Positions 20,459-29,032 of a DNA stretch of 64,000 nucleotides are shown here, piece by piece (position 1 is the first letter of the stretch; every line of letters starts with the position of its first letter). A program made the position numbers and the translations under genes. Source of the stretch: a virus. The DNA is taken from positions 1 through 64,000 of the IMG/VR virus record IMGVR_UViG_3300034101_004323; one strand, written 5' to 3'. Below the pieces are notes generated by a model that did not search any database, was not told the origin of the DNA, and was given only the letters and a program-made list of their open reading frames with translations.

Positions 20459-21915
20459 TGGTTTTGTGTGATCCATCAGCAGAAAGAGCTGTTCTGAGTT
20501 GCATTATGCAACACGGTGAAAAAGCTTATTATGAAATTAACGATATTATAAATGAATCCTGTTTTACTATAGATAGTAATCAACTTATTTATAGCTGTAT
20601 TAAACATATATTTTCCAATGGTCAGGTTAGTACTCTTGACATAGCATCAATATATTCTGCCTCTCAAGATTTGGGTTTCTCTCATATCTTTAGCAAAAAA
20701 GAAGAGGCTCAACATTTAAAGGCTATTTTAGATTTTCCAGCAAATATAGCGAATATAAATCAATTTGCAACCAAAATCAAAAAACTAGATATAGCAAGAT
20801 CCTTACATAAAGAGCTAGAAGCAGCACAAGAAAAATTATTAGATGTTACTGGTTCAGAACCTATATCGTCAATATTATCTATAGCAGAAGATACTCTGTT
20901 AGACTTTGGCTCTCACTTGTCTAATGATAATGAGCCGAAATCCATTGGCGATGATATAGATAATTATATCGAATACTTAAAAAGCAATCCGGTTGATCAG
21001 CTTGGCATATCAACAGGGTTTCCCATATATGACCATGCTATTGGTGGAGGTTTTAGAAAAGGAACCGTAAATGTTATTGCAGCAAGACCAAAGGTAGGAA
21101 AAACATTATTGGCAGATAATATAGGATTTTTTATAGCAAATAAATTAGGTATTCCTGTATTAAATATGGATACAGAAATGAGTACTAAGGACCATATTCA
21201 TAGAATATTGGCTATGATGACAGAGACAGAAATTAATAGTATAGAAACAGGCAAATTTGCTGCTACTCCAGCAACCAATAAAAAAATAAACGATGCCACA
21301 GAATCTCTGAAAAATACAAAATTATATTATAAGTCAATTGCCGGTAAGCCTTTTGATGAACAACTAAGTATAATGAGAAGATGGTTGTGTAAAGATGTCG
21401 GACTGAATCCAGATGGAACAGCAAAGGATTGTGTTATTGTATATGATTATTTAAAACTAATGGATAGTGCTGGAATTAGTCAAGACTTAAAGGAATATCA
21501 GATTCTAGGTTTTATGATGACAGCATTACACAATTTTGCTGTTAAATATCAAGTACCTATCTTAAGTTTTATACAATTAAATAGAGATGGTATTAGTAAA
21601 GAAAGCACAGACACGGCATCTGGATCAGATAGAATTATTTGGTTATGTAGTAATTTTTCTATATTCAAAAGAAAATCAGATGAAGAGATGGCTGAGGACT
21701 CTGGTAAAAGTGGGAATAGAAAACTTATTCCTTTAATATCCAGACACGGTGGATGTCTAGACGATAATGATTATATTAATTTTGGCCTCAAAGGATGGTG
21801 TGCAAAAATCACAGAGGGCCAAACAAAACTAGAAATATCTAATGGTATTAAAAATCAAAAAGACGGATTTATCGTAAATGAAGACAACAATGAAGAAGAA
21901 ATCAGTTTCGTATAA
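20458..21915 (+). CDS. dnaB: Replicative DNA helicase
   Basis: AERAVL, GISTGF, AARPKVGKT, DTEM, VYDYL, QLNR; start at ATG 20458 after AAGGAG. Confidence 0.92.
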   Translation: MVLCDPSAERAVLSCIMQHGEKAYYEINDIINESCFTIDSNQLIYSCIKHIFSNGQVSTLDIASIYSASQDLGFSHIFSKKEEAQHLKAILDFPANIANINQFATKIKKLDIARSLHKELEAAQEKLLDVTGSEPISSILSIAEDTLLDFGSHLSNDNEPKSIGDDIDNYIEYLKSNPVDQLGISTGFPIYDHAIGGGFRKGTVNVIAARPKVGKTLLADNIGFFIANKLGIPVLNMDTEMSTKDHIHRILAMMTETEINSIETGKFAATPATNKKINDATESLKNTKLYYKSIAGKPFDEQLSIMRRWLCKDVGLNPDGTAKDCVIVYDYLKLMDSAGISQDLKEYQILGFMMTALHNFAVKYQVPILSFIQLNRDGISKESTDTASGSDRIIWLCSNFSIFKRKSDEEMAEDSGKSGNRKLIPLISRHGGCLDDNDYINFGLKGWCAKITEGQTKLEISNGIKNQKDGFIVNEDNNEEEISFV

Positions 21916-23038
21916 TCAGCATAAATTAAAACTATTATCAGATAAGCTATGCGATAATATAGAATCTTTATTAGATTATTTTGGTATAGAATACAAGAGG
22001 TTATCTAAGATGATAACTATGAGTTGTCCTATACATGGTGGAGACAATTCATCCGCATTAAATCTATATCCAGAAGGCGATACATATAGAGGTAACTGGA
22101 AATGCAGAACACATAATTGTGAAGAAGTATTTAAATCTTCAATTATTGGATTTATTAGAGGCATAATATCTCACAATAACCATAATTGGATTAAAAATGG
22201 AGACACAGTATGCTCTTTTGACGAGGCACTGCAATTTGCACAAAATTTTATAAAACAAAACTTATCAGATATAAAAATAGACAAGAAAACGATAGAAAAA
22301 AGTAGTTTTGTCAATACTATTAATTATATCAATATTAAACAAAATAATAATCAATCAAGAGTAACAAAACAACAGATTAGAAAATCTCTAACTATTCCAT
22401 CACAATATTTTATTGATAGGGGATTCTCTGAAAATATATTAAATAAATATGATGTTGGAGATTGCACAACAAGCAATAAGGAAATGTCAAGTCGAGCCGT
22501 AGTACCAGTATATGATATTGACTATAAATATATGGTTGGTTGTACTGGAAGAAGCGTACATGAAAAATGCGAACAATGCTCATGCTTCCATGACAGTTCG
22601 GTATCCTGTCCAAAAGATGAATATTCTTGGCTAATGTCAAAATGGAGACATAATAAAGATTTTAAAACACAAGAATATTTATACAATTATTGGTTCGCAA
22701 AAGATTTTATTAAAAAAACTGGATGCGCTATTATTGTAGAGAGTCCAGGTAATGTTTGGAGACTAGAAGAATCAGGAATACATAATTCTGTCGCTATTTT
22801 TGGCTGCTCGTTATCTGATAAACAGAAAATGTTATTAGATATTTCTGGAGCTTTGACACTAATTCTTATTATGGATAATGACGATGCTGGTAAAAAAGCA
22901 ACAGATGCCATGATAAAAAAATGTCAAAAAATATATAATATCCATAATATAACGATAAAAAAAGAAGACATAGCCTCGATGAGTATTGATGAGATCAGAC
23001 AAGAAATATTACCCGAATTAGAAAAATTATCCTTATGA
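21878..23038 (+). CDS. dnaG: DNA primase (CHC2 zinc finger + TOPRIM)
   Basis: CPIH...C...C; IIVESPGNV; MDNDDAG. Confidence 0.85.
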   Translation: MKTTMKKKSVSYNQHKLKLLSDKLCDNIESLLDYFGIEYKRLSKMITMSCPIHGGDNSSALNLYPEGDTYRGNWKCRTHNCEEVFKSSIIGFIRGIISHNNHNWIKNGDTVCSFDEALQFAQNFIKQNLSDIKIDKKTIEKSSFVNTINYINIKQNNNQSRVTKQQIRKSLTIPSQYFIDRGFSENILNKYDVGDCTTSNKEMSSRAVVPVYDIDYKYMVGCTGRSVHEKCEQCSCFHDSSVSCPKDEYSWLMSKWRHNKDFKTQEYLYNYWFAKDFIKKTGCAIIVESPGNVWRLEESGIHNSVAIFGCSLSDKQKMLLDISGALTLILIMDNDDAGKKATDAMIKKCQKIYNIHNITIKKEDIASMSIDEIRQEILPELEKLSL

Positions 23039-23625
23039 CAAAAATAATAGCATTCGCAGGAAGAAAACAATCAGGAAAAACAACATGCTCCGAATTTGTA
23101 GCTAATTGTTATGCTGGTTCTTTGTTAGGAACGCCACAAATATATAACTTTGCAGATCCATTAAAAAAAGATATATGTATGAATATTTTAGGCTTATCAT
23201 ATGACCAATGCTATGGTAGTGATGAAAATAAAAATACATTTACAGATTGTTATTGGCAAGATACTAGACTAACCGCACGAGAGGTTATGCAATTTGTTGG
23301 TACAGATCTGTTTCGTAAAATGAAAAATAATGTTTGGGCATCGGCTACAATTAATAAAATTAAATTAGAACAACCAAAATTAGCTATTATTGCCGATTGT
23401 AGATTTCCTAATGAAGTTGAAGCAATTCAAAATGCTGGAGGATTAGTAATAAAATTGACACGAAATCCATATGGTTCTGATCACGATAGTGAAACAGCAT
23501 TAGATCCTGAAAGATATTCTACTGAAAATTTTGATCTTATTATTGAAAATACTCATATGACTATTGGAGAACAAAATAAACTTATACATCAATATCTTAT
23601 GGATAAAGGAATACTCTCATTATAA
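23035..23625 (+). CDS. Deoxynucleoside monophosphate kinase (T4 gp1-like)
   Basis: GRKQSGKTT, FADPLK, REVMQFVGT, DCRFPNE, HDSE. Confidence 0.9.
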   Translation: MTKIIAFAGRKQSGKTTCSEFVANCYAGSLLGTPQIYNFADPLKKDICMNILGLSYDQCYGSDENKNTFTDCYWQDTRLTAREVMQFVGTDLFRKMKNNVWASATINKIKLEQPKLAIIADCRFPNEVEAIQNAGGLVIKLTRNPYGSDHDSETALDPERYSTENFDLIIENTHMTIGEQNKLIHQYLMDKGILSL

Positions 23626-24671
23626 TAACATATTTTAGGTCTTCAAGCTTTAATGCTCATTCAATGTGTGAGCAACAGTATTTTATAGAATACGTTCTTG
23701 GATGGAGAGGTCCGTCTGGACAAAAAGCAGATAAAGGAACGATAGTTCATAAAGTATTAGAAATTTTAGCTGTTATTAAAAAAGCAGAACAAGATAATCA
23801 ATTAACTATAAATGATGATATAGCAGGCATTATAGACATTACTAATTATGATTTAGACAATATTATTGATTTAATATACAATCATTACTCGTTATCTGCA
23901 AAACATCATAAATGGAGTCCAAAAGATAAAAAGGACTGTAGTGAGTGGGTATATAAAGCTATTAAATTCAATGATGGTATGTTTGATCCAAGAAATAGAA
24001 AAATTCTTGAACCAGAACAGCACTTTGACTTTACTATAAATAAGTCGTGGTCAAAATACTCGTTCAAGACTGATGATGGTATAATATCTGGTAATCTTGC
24101 CTTAAAAGGTACAATAGACCTAATCACTCTTGTTAATGATAATACTATAGAAATAATTGACTGGAAAACAGGCAGAAGACTAGATTGGGCCACAGGTCAA
24201 GAAAAAACTCAAGAAAAACTAGAAAATGATCCGCAGTTAAGAATATATCATTATGCTATTAGTCAGCTATATCCAAATATAGATCATATTATATTTTCAA
24301 TATATTTTATAAATGATGGTGGTCCATTTTCAATATGTTTTGACAAGAGTGATCTTCAAAAAACAGAAGATATGTTAAGACAAAAATTTGAAATTATAAA
24401 ATCGTCAAAAAAACCAAAATTACATAAAAGTTGGATGTGTAATAAACTATGTCATTTTGGTAAAACAAATTTTTCTGATTCTAATATTTTACCAATTTTA
24501 GAATATAGAGATAGTCAAACATGTAAGCAGGGCGAGTTTATGACAAAATGCGAACAAATCAAACACGATTTAGAGTTGCATGGCATGGATTCTGTGGTAC
24601 AATCATACAAACACCCAAATCATTCGTTTGGTAAATATAAGGCTCCAGGAAGCATAGAGGAGAATAAATGA
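23619..24671 (+). CDS. Cas4/AddB-like PD-(D/E)xK nuclease; probable ATT start
   Basis: RSSSFNAHSMCEQQY, GTIVH, KGTIDLI, IIDWKTG, QLRIY, C-terminal Cys cluster. The frame extends 15 codons upstream of ATG 23664 to an ATT located 8 nt after AAGGA. Confidence 0.8.
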   Translation: MIITYFRSSSFNAHSMCEQQYFIEYVLGWRGPSGQKADKGTIVHKVLEILAVIKKAEQDNQLTINDDIAGIIDITNYDLDNIIDLIYNHYSLSAKHHKWSPKDKKDCSEWVYKAIKFNDGMFDPRNRKILEPEQHFDFTINKSWSKYSFKTDDGIISGNLALKGTIDLITLVNDNTIEIIDWKTGRRLDWATGQEKTQEKLENDPQLRIYHYAISQLYPNIDHIIFSIYFINDGGPFSICFDKSDLQKTEDMLRQKFEIIKSSKKPKLHKSWMCNKLCHFGKTNFSDSNILPILEYRDSQTCKQGEFMTKCEQIKHDLELHGMDSVVQSYKHPNHSFGKYKAPGSIEENK

Positions 24672-24715
24672 TGGACGTGATTAAGGAATATGCCCCTTTA
24701 CACGTCCATTCCTAA
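24668..24715 (+). CDS. dnaE: N-terminal 15 codons of DnaE (MMDVIKEYAPLHVHS*), in frame with the main dnaE ORF
   Basis: GAGGAG SD plus ATGA coupling; encodes the HxH of the PHP motif, then TAA. Confidence 0.8.
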   Translation: MMDVIKEYAPLHVHS

Positions 24716-24733
24716 GTGACTCATTATTCACTT
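24671..24733 (+). promoter_or_regulatory. RNA hairpins flanking the in-frame dnaE stop (candidate recoding signal)
   Basis: ATGGACGTG (24671-79)/CACGTCCAT (24701-09) is a perfect 9-bp inverted repeat; AAGTGA (24714-19)/TCACTT (24728-33) is a 6-bp stem over the stop and GTG. Confidence 0.6.
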
Positions 24734-26548
24734 TTGGATGGGCTCAGTAAACCAGAACAAATAGCTAAAAGATGCCAAAAAATTGGATCTAAGATTTGTG
24801 CTATAACAGATCATGGAACAATATCTGGCGCTGTACAGTTCTATTCGTCTATGAAAAAATATGGTATCAAACCGATATTAGGTTGTGAGCTATATTTATC
24901 TGATAATGATTGTACAATCAAAACTCCTGATAATGCTAAATTAAGCCATTTTATAGTTCTGGCTAAAAACTATAATGGATGGAAATCTTTAATCAAAATT
25001 ATTTCCAGGTCTAATAATCCTGATATTTTTTATCATAAACCAAGAATAGATATAGATACTTTATTGCCATACTTAGATGGTAATATTATAGGTTTTGCTG
25101 GTCATCTTGGATCATTAGTTGCAAATAGCATAAAAAACAATGACTCTAATACTACTATTAATCTTATTCAAAAGTTGAAAGACGGATTTGGAGAAAATAA
25201 TTTTTTTCTAGAAGCTCAATTAATAGACCAAGAACAAAATAAAGATCAAATTGATCTTACAAAAGAAATTAGAAGATTAGCACAAATAACAAATACTAGA
25301 GTAATAGCCACACCAGATGCTCATTATTGTGAATCTGAAGACGCTGTTGATCAGAGGATTCTACTGTGTAATAATCTTAAGACAACATTAACAGATATTA
25401 ATAGAAAACTTATATCTGATGAAGATACTCCTATGTCTTGTTTTTTTAAATCTGATAAGTATCATATTCCTTCTTTTGAAGAAATGAGCGAAATACATAA
25501 TCATAATGAATTAGAAGCAACATTAGAATTAGCTTCTATGTGTGAAGACTATGATATAACCAACAAACCAATGTTGCCATTATTTCAATGTCCAAATAAT
25601 GATAATCCGGACGAATATCTTAGACAGTTATGTAGGAATGGCTGGAAAGATAAAATAGCAAATATTATAGATCAAGATAAACAAGAAGAATACGTTAATA
25701 GAATCAAATACGAACTGTCTGTTTTACAAGGGGCTGGTCTGTCTAGCTACTTTTTAATAGTGCAGGACATAGTTAATTATGTATCGTCTAATGGGTGGTT
25801 ACCAGGACCAGGAAGAGGTAGTGCGGCCGGTTGTCTGGTCTCATATTTGATAGGAATAACTAGTATAGATCCCATCAAAAATGATCTAATATTTGAAAGA
25901 TTCTATAATGCAGGAAGAAATACACAGGATCGAGTGTCCATGCCAGATATAGATGTTGACGTTCCTATTAATAAGAGAGAAGCTGTTGTCGAATATATTA
26001 AAGATAAGTATGGTCATGATAAAGTCTCTCAGATGATAACATACAATACTATGAAAGGGAGAGGAGCACTTAAAGAGGTATTGAGAGTATATGGTAATAT
26101 ATCTTTCGACGAAATGAATAAAATAACAAAGTACATACCCGATGAAGCAAAGATAGCCGATGAATTGCAAGAAATGAAAGAAGAAACAGGAGAGGCTTCT
26201 ATTATACGCTGGGCTTTAGAGAATAATGTTGACAAACTCAAGGAATGGTGTTATTTATTAGATGATGGAACTCTATCCGGACCCCTCGCTAAAAGATTTG
26301 AGCAGGCTATTCGTTTAGAGGGCACTAAGTCTAACCAATCAAAACACGCTGCTGGTGTTGTAATATCTCAAGAAAAATTATCAGAAATATGCCCAATGGT
26401 TTACGATAGTAAAAATAAACAATTAATAGCTGGTATGGAAATGCAAGATCTTGAATCTTTAGGTGTAATCAAATTTGATATTCTTGGAATAGCAATGTTA
26501 GATAAAATCATGAATATTTCTCAAATATTATCATTAGAAGGAGTTTAA
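24716..26548 (+). CDS. dnaE: DNA polymerase III alpha, N-terminal gene (PHP + palm/thumb)
   Basis: HYSLLDG, ITDHG, GCE, DAHY, GRGSAAG, FERF, MPDIDVD, KHAAGVVI, KFDILG. Confidence 0.95.
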   Translation: MTHYSLLDGLSKPEQIAKRCQKIGSKICAITDHGTISGAVQFYSSMKKYGIKPILGCELYLSDNDCTIKTPDNAKLSHFIVLAKNYNGWKSLIKIISRSNNPDIFYHKPRIDIDTLLPYLDGNIIGFAGHLGSLVANSIKNNDSNTTINLIQKLKDGFGENNFFLEAQLIDQEQNKDQIDLTKEIRRLAQITNTRVIATPDAHYCESEDAVDQRILLCNNLKTTLTDINRKLISDEDTPMSCFFKSDKYHIPSFEEMSEIHNHNELEATLELASMCEDYDITNKPMLPLFQCPNNDNPDEYLRQLCRNGWKDKIANIIDQDKQEEYVNRIKYELSVLQGAGLSSYFLIVQDIVNYVSSNGWLPGPGRGSAAGCLVSYLIGITSIDPIKNDLIFERFYNAGRNTQDRVSMPDIDVDVPINKREAVVEYIKDKYGHDKVSQMITYNTMKGRGALKEVLRVYGNISFDEMNKITKYIPDEAKIADELQEMKEETGEASIIRWALENNVDKLKEWCYLLDDGTLSGPLAKRFEQAIRLEGTKSNQSKHAAGVVISQEKLSEICPMVYDSKNKQLIAGMEMQDLESLGVIKFDILGIAMLDKIMNISQILSLEGV

Positions 26549-26549
26549 T

Positions 26550-26729
26550 ATGAATAAAGTATTTTCTGAATTAGCAGTCGGTGAAAGATTCAATTTAAAT
26601 GGCGTCGATTATATAAAGATACAAGAAGTCAGAGTTAGTTGTTGCAGATCTATAAATGCTCAGGATGCAAATAATCCAGCAACCAAAACATTTGTCCAAG
26701 CTTCAACAACGGTAACTATTAATGCCTAA
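26550..26729 (+). CDS. 59-aa hypothetical protein within the split dnaE locus
   Basis: GAAGGAG SD; MNKVFSELAVGERFNLNGVDYIKIQEVRVSCCRSINA...; overlaps the dnaQ start; below ORF-track cutoff. Confidence 0.7.
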   Translation: MNKVFSELAVGERFNLNGVDYIKIQEVRVSCCRSINAQDANNPATKTFVQASTTVTINA

Positions 26730-27423
26730 TTTTCAAAAAATCTGTGTTTTCGACATGGAAACGGACGGGATTAACCCGGATGTTTGCAGTCCAGTACAAA
26801 TCGCTGCTGTTGTTATTGATCCAATAAAATTAGAAATAGTCAAAGATTCAGAATTTAATATAAATCTCAAGCCAGAACTTTTAGAAAATAATACAAGTTA
26901 TGCCTATGAGGACAGTGATGTTTTGGATTTTCATTCCAAAGTTAGAGGATGTTCTAAAGCAGCAATCCTTGACTCATGGAAAAAATACCAGTCACAAGAG
27001 GCTGGCTGGAAAATGTTTGTCTCTTATCTTGAAATGTATCACATTAAATCAAAGGGAAATAAAAAATCCTGCTTTTCTGCACCAATTGCTGCTGGATTTA
27101 ATATTAATAGATTTGATTTGCGTATTATAGAAAGATTAAGTAAAAAACATAATAATCTTAATAAAGAAGGAAGATCTTCTTTATTCTATCCAAGAGATGT
27201 TATTGATGTTATGAACTTATTATTTTATTGGTTCGAATACAATAATGAGTTAAAAAACTATACATTAGATAATCTAAGAGACTATCTTGGCATAAATAAA
27301 GACAATGCTCACGATGCACTAAAGGACGTAAAAGATACAGCAGACATTATGACTAGATTTTTAAAACTACATAGAAGCCTATCTAATAAGGTTAAATTCA
27401 AAGGATCTTTTATAAATGCCTAA
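26722..27423 (+). CDS. dnaQ: DEDDh 3'-5' exonuclease (DnaQ/epsilon-like)
   Basis: FDMETDG, AGFNINRFD, HDALKD. Confidence 0.85.
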   Translation: MPNFQKICVFDMETDGINPDVCSPVQIAAVVIDPIKLEIVKDSEFNINLKPELLENNTSYAYEDSDVLDFHSKVRGCSKAAILDSWKKYQSQEAGWKMFVSYLEMYHIKSKGNKKSCFSAPIAAGFNINRFDLRIIERLSKKHNNLNKEGRSSLFYPRDVIDVMNLLFYWFEYNNELKNYTLDNLRDYLGINKDNAHDALKDVKDTADIMTRFLKLHRSLSNKVKFKGSFINA

Positions 27424-29032
27424 ATGGTCATTTGATTGTGGATGTTGTTTTGATATAATAGGATCATCTGGAGATAAACATAAGCTTGTCTTCTCTCCCA
27501 AGATAGAATCTATAAACTTATCATGCTCAAAAACATGGGAACTAATTTCTTCTGGCAACACAAAAGGCTGTTTTCAGTTAGAATCTAGGCTTGGGCAAAT
27601 GATGGCAAAAAAGCTTAAGCCTGAAAATATAGAACAATTATCTGGTCTGATTAGTATTTTAAGACCAGGGTGCTTGGAAGCAATTAGAGAAGGTAAAAGC
27701 GTAACCAATCACTATATAGACAAAAAGAATGGATTAGAGTCTATAAATTATTTTCATGAATCATTAGAGAGATCTCTCAGTACAACATACGGAGAGATGA
27801 TATATCAAGAACAAGCCATGTCAATAGCAAAAGATTTGGCTGGATTTGATCTACAAGAAGCTGATTCTTTAAGAAAAGCCATTGGTAAGAAAAAACCTGA
27901 AGAAATGGCTAAAGTTAAACAGAAATTTTTAGACGGAGCAAAAAAACTAGGCGTTGTAAATATACAAGAAGCAGAAGAGATCTTTGGATGGATAGAAAAA
28001 AGTCAAAGATATTCATTTAATAAATCTCACGGAATATCCTATGCTATGAACGCATACCTATCGGCTTATGCAAAAGCTCATTTTCCAGAAGCATTTTTTG
28101 TATCTTATTTAAAATTTGCAAAAGATAAAATAGATCCACAGCAAGAAATAAAAGAGTTAATAAAGAATGCTAATGAAATGGATATCCTGGTTTGCCTTCC
28201 AGATTTAAGACTGAAAAATCCAAATTTTGGCATTTTTAATAACAAGATTTATTTTGGTTTAACAGATATAAAAGGAGTTGGAGATTCTGTCTTCAGTAAG
28301 ATCACTGATATCTGTATAAATATTGATCTTTATAATCTTGGATGGATGGATTTATTATTAAAGCTATTACTTAATATTAATTCGACAGCTGCAAAAGCTC
28401 TTATTTCTAGTGGAGCTATAGATTATGTATCAAAAAATAGAACAGAAATGTTATTTGAGTTCGAAATTATTAGTTCATTAACTAAAAAAGAAATAGAATA
28501 TGCTAGTATGGTTACTCAAACAACAACATCTACTAAAGACATGTTAACCTATTTACTTAACCATAATAAGGTTAATGTAAAACGAAAACAGATAATACAA
28601 AGTTTATTACAGAGTGTTAATAAGCCACCTTATTCTTTAATAGATAAGATAGAATGGCTTGCTGATACTGAAGCTTCTTTGCTCGGAACTGCTATATCCT
28701 GTTCTAAGTTAGATAGTTATGATATAGAAATGACTAATGTAGACTGTAAAACATTTAAAACCAGTAATAATGCTGCTAATATTATTATCGCTGGGGAAAT
28801 TACTAATATTAATGTTGTAAAAACTAAAAAAGGAAAATTACCAGGACAAGAAATGTCTTTTGTTTCAATAGAGGATCAAACAGGGGCCTTAGATTCTGTT
28901 ATATTTTTTCCAGAAACATATGCTAAATATAAGCATTATTTATTTGAAAATAATATTCTTATTTTTATTGGAAATAAAAGCAAAACCAAAGACGGTCTGG
29001 TTGTAGATAAATGTTTCGTTCCCAAGTCTTGA
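27416..29032 (+). CDS. dnaE: DNA polymerase III alpha, C-terminal gene (fingers, HhH, OB fold)
   Basis: GCFQLES, RPG, YQEQ.M, AD.LRKAIGKKK, YSFNKSH, FGL..IKGVG, OB fold IAGEI...MSFVSIED. Confidence 0.93.
   Translation: MPKWSFDCGCCFDIIGSSGDKHKLVFSPKIESINLSCSKTWELISSGNTKGCFQLESRLGQMMAKKLKPENIEQLSGLISILRPGCLEAIREGKSVTNHYIDKKNGLESINYFHESLERSLSTTYGEMIYQEQAMSIAKDLAGFDLQEADSLRKAIGKKKPEEMAKVKQKFLDGAKKLGVVNIQEAEEIFGWIEKSQRYSFNKSHGISYAMNAYLSAYAKAHFPEAFFVSYLKFAKDKIDPQQEIKELIKNANEMDILVCLPDLRLKNPNFGIFNNKIYFGLTDIKGVGDSVFSKITDICINIDLYNLGWMDLLLKLLLNINSTAAKALISSGAIDYVSKNRTEMLFEFEIISSLTKKEIEYASMVTQTTTSTKDMLTYLLNHNKVNVKRKQIIQSLLQSVNKPPYSLIDKIEWLADTEASLLGTAISCSKLDSYDIEMTNVDCKTFKTSNNAANIIIAGEITNINVVKTKKGKLPGQEMSFVSIEDQTGALDSVIFFPETYAKYKHYLFENNILIFIGNKSKTKDGLVVDKCFVPKS

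Follow-up and report, generated by a model that had tools for sequence, protein, structure and literature searches.

A nine-base gap opening with a stop codon in the dnaE gene of a lake phage, and a candidate ribosomal hop across it

To our knowledge, the established cases of high-efficiency programmed ribosomal bypassing come from essentially a single cassette family, that of T4 gene 60 and its homologues, and surveyors of this family reportedly still call it unique. The gene 60 bypass sits in the MobA element, an HNH homing-endonuclease element (bioRxiv 10.1101/2022.08.31.505936; PMC7026636; PMC5462505). Candidate bypasses of 10 nt, and also of 7 nt, have been described in terminase genes of the Streptomyces phage phiHau3 and of prophages (PMC10732093). 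In E. coli, low-level tRNA hops over stop codons occur between matched codons (Weiss et al., 1987, as cited in PMC10732093). Translational coupling can proceed via termination-reinitiation (70S scanning; PMC11194080).

The dnaE gene of an uncultured lake phage is interrupted after 14 codons by nine genuine bases which open with a stop codon. The window analysed here comprises 64,000 nt (positions 1 to 64,000 of the IMG/VR record IMGVR_UViG_3300034101_004323). In this phage group, dnaE is already divided into two genes, and a DEDDh exonuclease gene is located within the dnaE operon. The locus contains the following features.

23664 to 24671, plus strand: PD-(D/E)XK (Cas4/AddB-like) nuclease gene 5' of dnaE, from the ORF list (Pfam PF12705, E 4.8e-16)
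24657 to 24662, plus strand: Shine-Dalgarno sequence GAGGAG of ORF1
24671 to 24712, plus strand: ORF1, 14 codons, MDVIKEYAPLHVHS, encoding the first beta-strand and the HxH metal-ligand motif of the PHP domain
24671 to 24709, plus strand: stem-loop 1, a 9-bp stem (24671-79/24701-09) with an inner helix AAGG (24683-86)/CCTT (24695-98), from the MFE fold
24704 to 24743, plus strand: alternative outer helix, GTCCATTC (24704-11)/GGATGGGC (24736-43), from the RNAalifold consensus of 46 cassettes
24710 to 24712, plus strand: candidate take-off codon TCC (Ser); TCY in 20/20 cassettes from the protein search versus 29/40 intact genes
24713 to 24721, plus strand: coding gap TAAGTGACT, comprising the stop TAA (24713-15), GTG (24716-18) and the near-cognate candidate landing codon ACT (24719-21)
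24714 to 24733, plus strand: stem-loop 2, the candidate take-off hairpin, AAGTGA (24714-19)/TCACTT (24728-33) with an 8-nt loop
24716 to 24718, plus strand: GTG, in frame and next to the stop; the annotated start and the candidate codon for a restart
24722 to 26548, stop included, plus strand: resumed dnaE part 1 (HYSLLDG...), the remaining PHP domain and the polymerase NTPase domain

All elements listed in the first-pass annotation were found where it had placed them. These include the reading M-M-D-V-I-K-E-Y-A-P-L-H-V-H-S-TAA(24713-15)-V-T-H-Y-S-L-L-D-G, the Shine-Dalgarno sequence, the 9-bp inverted repeat (ATGGACGTG, 24671-79; CACGTCCAT, 24701-09), the 6-bp stem, and the GTG at 24716, upstream of which no Shine-Dalgarno sequence was found. 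Its translation start at 24668 held in part: an in-frame ATG is present there (24668-24670) and is overlapped by the TGA of the nuclease gene (24669-24671), which abuts the ORF1 start, but only the closest relatives share this ATG with the window. The start common to the whole family is the second ATG at 24671, and ORF1 spans 14 codons (13-15) in 46/46 distinct cassettes. The Shine-Dalgarno sequence is part of the cassette, with (A)AGGAG 8-11 nt ahead of an ATGGAC start in most cases. The nuclease gene lies upstream of dnaE in gap-bearing and intact relatives alike. The PHP motif of DnaE picks up again at CAT 24722. Pfam matched PF07733 and PF02811 (PHP) in the ORF beginning with the GTG, the latter aligned from profile position 6 only. 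The contiguous motif HxH(S/T)x(Y/F)SLLDG is absent from the window DNA, where the gap splits it; it is contiguous, and of one length, in 40 distinct intact relatives. A hop over the gap would rebuild it exactly.

An assembly artefact or sequencing error, against which the first-pass annotation had advised a check, is excluded by identical sequence in independent lake metagenome assemblies. The comparison was made on contigs, and those of three other lake-water studies (X5, X6, X7) have 0 differences over 24614-24950. The same nine bases occur in three IMG/VR contigs whose DnaE is 93-94% identical. At the DNA level, 24400-25400 had no match among GenBank phages; relatives found there by protein comparison do not exceed 35% identity and were uninformative. 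No Rfam family was matched, the sole match being sub-threshold and attributable to chance. A covariance-model search of this and related genomes returned one cassette per genome, always at dnaE. One further candidate, L145, was rejected as a chance pattern match within an unrelated gene. No paper describing this dnaE cassette family was found.

The gap is not private to the window phage. About 50 distinct versions are present in related IMG/VR and JGI contigs, and a large group of AT-rich phages from fresh water has the cassette at the dnaE 5' end; in the remaining relatives the motif is uninterrupted and both hairpins are missing. The gap of 48 distinct cassettes measures 8 nt (4), 9 nt (9), 10 nt (16), 11 nt (17) or 12 nt (2), so that all three frame relations are represented. 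A gap divisible by three is found in only 11 of the 48, fewer than expected by chance. Since such lengths are not favoured, the gap does not appear to be read as codons. At least eight length changes are required on the DnaE tree. CAT-TCY-TAR precedes and opens the gap in all versions, and TAA or TAG follows TCY in 48/48 distinct cassettes, some of which were retrieved by patterns fixing GTCCATTCYTAR and demanding TAR. The same holds for the 20 cassettes recovered by protein search, for which no pattern was used. The alignment of relatives proposed in the first-pass annotation thus revealed a conserved stop after HxHS, inserts of 8-12 nt in three frames and two covarying stems.

Candidate take-off and landing codons match (TCY to TCN) in 32/48 distinct relatives, and in 32/32 of these the landing codon is the first TCN triplet past the take-off codon. 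A start codon at or beside the stop, represented in the window by the in-frame TAA-GTG (24713-24718), is missing for the downstream ORF in 28/48 distinct relatives. Cognate TCN landing combined with a downstream frame free of ATG, GTG and TTG is found in 26 distinct variants. In L018 and L089/L094, a TGA in the downstream frame stands immediately 5' of the landing codon, which leaves these variants without any frameshift path. For most variants a hop would be the sole route to the downstream frame, because start codons are missing and several carry frameshift-blocking stops. The window itself departs from the matched pattern. TCC and ACT agree in two of three positions, ACT is not cognate for tRNA-Ser, and a cognate-looking TCA lies 2 nt beyond it, out of frame. 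ACT landing is retained across five DnaE lineages that are mutually only 66-73% identical.

Stem-loop 1 sequesters the start codon, and its 3' arm adjoins the take-off codon. Stem-loop 2 includes bases of the stop codon, and its loop encloses the landing codon together with the first two codons of the resumed frame. In 52 distinct sequences, pairing amounts to 98.7% in stem 1 and 98.3% in stem 2. One pair of stem 1 covaries between G-C and A-U (35:14) with 0 A-C mismatches, and the inner helix shows matching changes in relatives when read from the alignment (AGAGG/CCTCT, AGCG/CGCT, AACG/CGTT). Stem 2 forms 6/6 pairs in 41/46 sequences with 13 arm-pair types, and compensatory changes occur at three of its six pairs. 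Taken together, four pairs of the two stems have compensatory changes, and the covariation score, its counts drawn from related sequences, was reached by 0/500 shuffles. For the 42-nt ORF1 region the folding energy is -18.7 +/- 1.1 kcal/mol, versus -3.3 +/- 1.5 in uninterrupted relatives, and both stems were absent when looked for in intact relatives. The alternative outer helix would close around the stretch from the take-off codon through the gap to stem-loop 2, and is incompatible with stem 1. It is supported by the fixation of its synonymous sites (GAT 20/20 and GGA 19/20, versus 26/40 and 18/40 in intact genes), and no covariation was found for 24704-11/24736-43. A pseudoknot between the AGGA loop and TCCT, suggested in the first-pass annotation, found no support: AAGG (24683-86) pairs with CCTT (24695-98) inside the hairpin.

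ORF1 and the resumed ORF are both under protein-level constraint. Y-x-P-L-H-V-H-S is kept in ORF1 while the Leu codon varies over five synonymous codons, and synonymous change falls at loop positions outside the stems. The first resumed codons vary as H/M and Y/F alone, as in intact genes. The ORF1 peptide sequence is conserved, as a nascent-peptide signal in the exit tunnel would be, but the PHP motif and stem 1 also account for this.

The best reading is that the gap is probably crossed by a short programmed hop of peptidyl-tRNA-Ser; we infer the hop itself from the relatives that offer neither start codons nor frameshift paths. Initiation at ATG 24671 (or 24668) would be followed by translation of MDVIKEYAPLHVHS and a pause in which peptidyl-tRNA-Ser sits on UCC (24710-12) while UAA fills the A site. 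In place of termination, the tRNA would uncouple from the mRNA, which would slip by 9 nt. Re-pairing with ACU (24719-21) at two of three positions would allow decoding to restart at CAU 24722, and the product would be a single polypeptide with the canonical PHP motif ...LHVHSHYSLLDG... Stem-loop 2 may act as the A-site take-off hairpin. Stem-loop 1 may re-form at the mRNA exit and drive or lock the forward movement, by analogy to T4 gene 60. A bypass of the T4 gene 60 type had been the leading idea of the first-pass annotation, and it gains support from the conserved stop after HxHS and the covarying stems of the relatives. Uninterrupted relatives without conserved stems had been named there as evidence to the contrary; such relatives exist, lacking the stems, while the interrupted ones retain both, so that the objection holds only by half.

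Translation may instead end at UAA 24713 and free a 14-residue peptide, with the same ribosome restarting at GUG 24716. DnaE would then start with fMet-Thr-His-Tyr-Ser, and the peptide would give the HxH strand in trans or be dispensable. As in termination-reinitiation, stop and GTG are adjacent in the window, and the in-frame GTG directly abuts the stop, so that a ribosome could resume without leaving the mRNA. ACT codes for Thr, which suits the S/T position of the motif; this Thr (T2 of the GTG ORF) falls on T14 in the alignment with Taq Pol III alpha (2HPI). A DnaE made from two genes is already tolerated in this phage group. ATG is the first resumed codon in 3/20 gap forms versus 1/40 intact forms. 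In addition, 14/16 distinct variants with non-cognate landing codons (ACT, GCT) carry GTG or ATG in frame, either as the first resumed codon or shortly ahead of it, as would be expected if restart had replaced hopping in those lineages. Restart is nevertheless judged less likely than the hop, though for the subtype of the window it is a serious rival. A start codon for restarting is missing in most of the family, and the 26 distinct relatives without a start in the downstream frame keep the same cassette and stems. The sister subtype TCC-TAACG-ACT (TAACGACT) has lost the GTG via two compensatory stem changes, yet retains the stem, ACT and, in 5 loci, an intact downstream ORF of 617 aa. In the ATG subtypes, the codon ahead of the ATG is invariably NCT though untranslated. 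The GTG lacks a Shine-Dalgarno sequence, and the 14-residue peptide would need to bind in trans. It is quite improbable that the PHP N-terminus is dispensable, with the gene working from GTG 24716 or later without HxH and ORF1 a leftover leader of the element. The PHP site of E. coli DnaE is degenerate, and together with the DEDDh exonuclease of the operon this means that PHP proofreading could be redundant. YxPLHVHS is nonetheless held at the amino-acid level despite synonymous change in non-stem loop positions. Start-less variants could not express HYSLLDG, yet its codons evolve as coding. CTG replaces the downstream TTG in L026 and L058, which, with the coding evolution of the H-Y-S codons, also led to the rejection of a downstream TTG start.

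Readthrough of UAA 24713 by a near-cognate or suppressor tRNA, raised as an alternative in the first-pass annotation, would yield full-length DnaE with three additional residues (X-V-T) in the PHP motif. The 9-nt gap of the window and its nearest relatives is in frame, so that readthrough could function in this subtype. This route is disfavoured by the gap lengths given above and is regarded as extremely unlikely. The 8-nt subtypes TAGTGACT and TAACGACT equal the 9-nt TAAGTGACT type minus one base, so that the frame is altered, and the gene is retained. Three residues would be added between metal ligands of a motif whose length is fixed in the 40 intact relatives, and the 84-kb contig carries no tRNA gene. 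It is hardly credible, too, that the gap is removed before translation, either by excision of 8-12 nt from the RNA or by a rare precise DNA deletion that gives a subpopulation with intact genes. A 3-nt direct repeat (TCY...TCN) flanks the gap in most variants, and on the tree gap forms are intermingled with intact ones, fitting recurrent precise loss. We know of no micro-intron of such size, or splicing system for it, in bacteria or phages, and among the contigs of four lake runs none lacked the nine bases. The stop right after the take-off codon and the conserved length of ORF1 point to a translational event. Three more routes were rejected. An alternative genetic code does not fit the use of both TAA and TAG and the differing frames. 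A His-to-His hop (CAT to CAY) would remove two residues of the motif of invariant length and fails in ATG variants. A -1/+1 frameshift as the general route meets stops in L018, L089/L094 and every form of 9 or 12 nt, and the residues that the gap would encode show no conservation.

The candidate hop of the peptidyl-tRNA resembles T4 gene 60 in several respects. The take-off codon is followed directly by a stop, which falls within the 5' arm of a hairpin, and is closely preceded by a second stem-loop. Take-off and landing codons match in most dnaE family members, and the metal-binding motif of a replication protein is interrupted. As with MobA, the element brings a replacement copy of a conserved segment of the host gene followed by a gap, and in dnaE relatives an HNH gene directly upstream runs into the new ORF in a different frame. 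The gap frequently outlasts the endonuclease, and the distribution is polyphyletic. In contrast, the host gene of gene 60 is the Topo II large subunit, and here it is the PHP motif of dnaE, without sequence similarity. The gap is 50 nt there and 8-12 nt in the dnaE family (9 nt in the window), and take-off is from Gly GGA there and from Ser UCY here. Take-off at codon 14 leaves no room for a long nascent-peptide signal; the chain of 14 residues is too short for a tunnel signal like that of gene 60. The dnaE landing codon is located inside the loop of the take-off hairpin, that of the window is merely near-cognate, and the dnaE hop is a proposal from sequence. By this comparison, the dnaE cassette is not a member of the MobA/gene 60 homologous family and would only work alike. 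The phiHau3 candidates share a non-coding block of about 10 nt in a conserved phage gene, relatives without the insert, stem-loops flanking the site, and conserved junctions from which bypass is favoured over frameshift. Their trigger is a rare UUA codon with a developmentally limited tRNA and not a stop (PMC10732093), and they comprise three genes only, form no broad series of natural variants and are not reported to be linked with a homing endonuclease. In the hops of Weiss et al., as cited there, peptidyl-tRNA likewise jumps from a stop-adjacent codon to a matching codon a few nucleotides downstream. Those hops are described as inefficient and were seen in reporter constructs, whereas a dnaE hop would have to yield an essential replicase, and conserved RNA structures surround its site.

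Gap forms are scattered on the DnaE tree. At least 12 changes are needed, a single clade is rejected, and the forms are polyphyletic. An HNH homing-endonuclease gene (PHROG 3322/374) lies directly upstream of 8/53 distinct gap loci, truncated remnants included, versus 0/47 intact loci. Control of the replicase by the element as a regulatory switch, as envisaged in the first-pass annotation, is speculative. The HNH link suggests instead that the cassette originated from a selfish element, and together with the polyphyletic gap forms it parallels the MobA element of T4 (bioRxiv 10.1101/2022.08.31.505936). A free-standing endonuclease beside the gap is absent in the window, where the PD-(D/E)XK gene abuts ORF1, and the window cassette looks like an endonuclease-less derivative. 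A recent gene-conversion tract was rejected. The excess similarity that gap forms share does not reach beyond 30 nt past the gap; conservation of the cassette therefore reflects constraint and not recent transfer. The cassette is best read as a unit derived from a mobile element, composed of a Shine-Dalgarno sequence, a 14-codon replacement N-terminus in a hairpin, a gap started by a stop and a stop-containing hairpin. The gap may first have served to shield the carrier of the element from its own endonuclease.

Tentatively, the dnaE cassettes may represent a second, independent bypass family borne by homing endonucleases, with the shortest known programmed hop (8-12 nt), at codon 14 of an essential replicase. 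In the subtype of the window, landing would be on a non-cognate ACU. Its site would be fixed by a structure of the mRNA, the loop of the take-off hairpin, in place of a match between codon and anticodon, and no long nascent-peptide signal would be needed. A ribosome hop over a break is a very rare mode of gene reading, for which the case is made here from sequence comparison. Gene callers truncate or mis-start such dnaE genes (here at GTG 24716, with loss of the HxH metal ligands), and annotations of an abundant freshwater phage group are therefore systematically wrong. About 50 natural variants, which differ in gap length (five), stop/arm register (three) and landing codon (several), form a ready mutational series from which the minimum requirements for take-off and landing could be derived. 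The repeated endonuclease link supports the view that coding gaps are self-immunity devices of selfish elements in motifs intolerant of extra residues. If true, an independent bypass family in another essential gene would make bypassing a recurrent phenomenon and not a one-off.

The dnaE start lies on an 84-kb IMG/VR viral contig with a G+C content of about 31%, on which no tRNA genes were found. At 24657-24745, the SD is followed by ATG-ATG-GAC-GTG ... CAC-GTC-CAT-TCC-TAA-GTG-ACT-CAT-TAT-TCA-CTT-TTG-GAT-GGG, which reads MMDVIKEYAPLHVHS-stop-VTHYSLLDG in a single frame. A 14-codon frame (ORF1, from ATG 24671 or 24668) thus ends within the PHP motif, at a gap of 9 nt (24713-24721). The gene call places the dnaE start behind this stop. 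The called ORF lacks the HxH ligands, because it matches the Pfam PHP profile from position 6 only; in an alignment with Taq Pol III alpha, its residue 2 falls on T14. The site is identical in contigs from three other lake-water studies, and the same 9 nt are present in three relatives of 93-94% identity. The interruption is therefore real DNA. The elements of the site are:

within 24657-24745, + strand: SD GAGGAG, read from the sequence
24671-79 with 24701-09, + strand: stem 1, first three codons paired with the H-V-H codons
24714-19 with 24728-33, + strand: stem 2, stop codon and following bases paired with the Ser-Leu codons of HYSLLDG
24704-24711 with 24736-24743, + strand: alternative 8-bp helix GTCCATTC/GGATGGAC, RNAalifold consensus
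24716, + strand: GTG start of the called dnaE ORF

From the 219 relatives found by a protein-seeded IMG/VR scan, 80 were retained. About two thirds of these are uninterrupted (M-x-x-Y-x-P-L-H-x-H-S-H-Y-S-L-L-D-G), and about one third is broken at exactly the same place as the window. Two DNA-pattern scans on IMG/VR and one on JGI metagenomes brought the total to 48 distinct cassettes, with the consensus CAY-GTC-CAT-TCY-TAR, short spacer, NCN, CAY or ATG, TAY/TTY-TCN-CTN. The stop predicted to persist after HxHS does so, as TAR after TCY, in all 48. ORF1 has 14 codons in nearly all cassettes (range 13-15). Among the distinct cassettes, the next sense codon follows the take-off codon after 8 (n = 4), 9 (n = 9), 10 (n = 16), 11 (n = 17) or 12 nt (n = 2). 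At 24728 of the window, loose ends in two lake-water metagenome runs (X1 and X6) show a relative whose gap is a 12-nt variant (TAAGTGAGATCA). Since it occurs in the same lake samples as the window phage, different cassette versions co-occur and could meet in co-infection.

Multiples of three are not preferred among the gap lengths of the 48 cassettes, and the length changes at least eight times on the DnaE tree. No translated insert could absorb such changes, so the gap is not decoded. Frameshifting as a joining route is ruled out in the relatives' loci L018 and L089/L094, which have a downstream-frame TGA immediately 5' of the landing codon (the last triplet of the gap), and in the 9- and 12-nt forms, which have a stop in frame; the ORFs do not overlap in any of these. 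In 26 distinct variants, the stretch of the downstream frame from the preceding stop up to the first conserved codon holds no ATG, GTG or TTG. ORF1 keeps Y-x-P-L-H-V-H-S, with its Leu encoded by five synonymous codons, and the first resumed codons show only H/M and Y/F exchanges, exactly like intact genes. Judged from these patterns, protein-level constraint evidently acts on both sides of the gap. In all 32 variants that have TCN as the landing codon, no earlier TCN follows the take-off codon. A putative peptidyl-tRNA-Ser hop from TCY to the gap-ending NCN triplet is the only single mechanism that would join the ORFs in all variants.

The window itself has the landing codon ACT, a gap in frame and a GTG following the stop. 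Stop and restart at GTG 24716 is the main rival here, less likely than the hop but a real one. Across the family, the landing codon is non-cognate (ACT or GCT) in 16 distinct variants, and 14 of these have an in-frame GTG or ATG, a pattern that would fit lineages where restart took over. Against this, the 8-nt subtype TCC-TAACG-ACT has lost the GTG via two compensatory stem changes, yet keeps ACT, and its 617-aa ORF is intact in five loci. Five lineages that share only 66-73% identity retain ACT, and the codon before ATG in the ATG subtypes is still always NCT. On these three grounds a hop is cautiously favoured for the window.

The covarying stems proposed earlier are borne out among the relatives. 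In a MAFFT alignment of 46 sequences, 96% of the cells in stems 1 and 2 pair. The value is 98.6% in a model-fitted alignment of 52 distinct sequences, which leans towards the structure and contains related sequences. In this fitted alignment of related sequences, compensatory changes occur at four stem pairs, the covariation score is reached by none of 500 shuffles, and pairing falls to 31-54% once the stem partners are slid. The stem 2 core appears as GTG/CAC, GAG/CTC, GCG/CGC or ACG/CGT; a register shift (TARGNGA with CTT versus TAGNGA with CTA) is compensated in the Leu codon. Synonymous sites are frozen in gap forms only: the Val codon is GTC in 20/20 gap forms versus 2/40 intact forms, and every gap form uses TCN for the Ser that follows Tyr. 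Folding of the ORF1 region gives -18.7 kcal/mol in gap forms versus -3.3 in intact relatives. No support was found for an AGGA/TCCT pseudoknot, a detail of the first-pass annotation; the Pro-Leu codons are the pairing partners of the loop purines instead. The alternative helix would enclose the gap and stem 2; it and stem 1 compete for the GTCCAT segment. Its synonymous sites are conserved, but covariation is absent at 24704-11/24736-43. It could act as a switch, with the start codon sequestered in one state and the structure open in the other.

A hop would join ORF1 to the resumed dnaE, giving the junction peptide EYAPLHVHSHYSLLDGLSK. When UCC occupies the P site, positions -9 to -1 would be taken up by the 3' arm of stem 1; if this arm zips up with the 5' arm, which has by then left the ribosome, the mRNA could be pulled forward. 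Pairing of exiting mRNA has been proposed for the forward pull in gene 60 (bioRxiv 10.1101/2024.12.09.627546), and by analogy stem 1 could play this role in the dnaE cassette. Stem 2 would start within the stop codon in the A site, as the take-off hairpin of gene 60 does (PMC5462505). Two known systems come closest: the bypass of T4 gene 60/MobA and the candidate 10-nt bypasses in the phiHau3 terminase, for which a rare UUA codon is the trigger (PMC10732093). Full-text literature searches turned up no description of a bypass in dnaE. In the MobA element of T4-like phages, the bypass insert protects its carrier from MobA (bioRxiv 10.1101/2022.08.31.505936), and the dnaE cassette with an upstream endonuclease has the same architecture. 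The logic is common to both, whereas gene, gap size and codon differ and there is no homology.

Downstream, dnaE is divided into two genes:

24716-26548, + strand: dnaE part 1, first gene of the split dnaE
26550-26729: 59-aa ORF between the parts
26722-27423: DEDDh/RNase T-like exonuclease between the parts
27416-29032: dnaE part 2, with finger, HhH and OB domains

Of 141 related loci, 115 have a part-1 ORF of 600-650 aa; the split therefore seems to be a conserved trait of the group, and it is unrelated to the 5' gap. The upstream replication module (21878-23625) holds a primase-like Toprim-domain protein (386 aa) and a deoxynucleotide monophosphate kinase-like protein (196 aa).

A maximum-likelihood tree built from 76 distinct DnaE part-1 proteins does not separate gap from intact forms; they are intermingled, and at least 12 state changes are required. 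A single gap clade, a group chosen with a first tree already in view, is rejected by the AU test (delta lnL 628, p ~1e-4). Gap forms resemble one another more than intact forms do only in the first 30 nt 3' of the gap; the cassette is therefore kept by constraint, not recent transfer. It occurs once per genome, always at dnaE. Between the PD-(D/E)XK gene and ORF1, 8 of 53 distinct gap loci versus 0 of 47 intact loci carry a 240-250-aa ORF or its truncated remnant (Fisher p 0.006, ignoring relatedness). This ORF has an N-terminal HTH, matches PHROG families annotated endonuclease, HNH endonuclease or endonuclease VII as well as phage genes annotated HNH endonuclease, and overlaps ORF1 out of frame at its 3' end. 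Some gap-bearing relatives (L024:1249-1797, L026:1305-1811, L084:660-1157, L101:99-758) have a more distant paralogue of it (28-33% identity) another 1.1-1.2 kb upstream, ahead of the PD-(D/E)XK gene; none was found in intact relatives. Truncated remnants of the dnaE-adjacent homing endonuclease, comprising the last 43 or 103 residues only, are fused to or adjoin the PD-(D/E)XK gene end (L089:5251-5379, L112:4019-4327, L126:4544-4852, L130:91-399). They document a stepwise loss of the endonuclease from loci that retain the gap cassette. Upstream of the cassette in L018 and L040, the original ATGA junction, as in the intact arrangement, can still be recognised, indicating that the element replaced the first ~11 dnaE codons by a copy of its own together with the gap. 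An endonuclease is missing from the window, where only 14 nt separate the conserved end of the nuclease gene from ORF1; the window thus looks like an endonuclease-less derivative.
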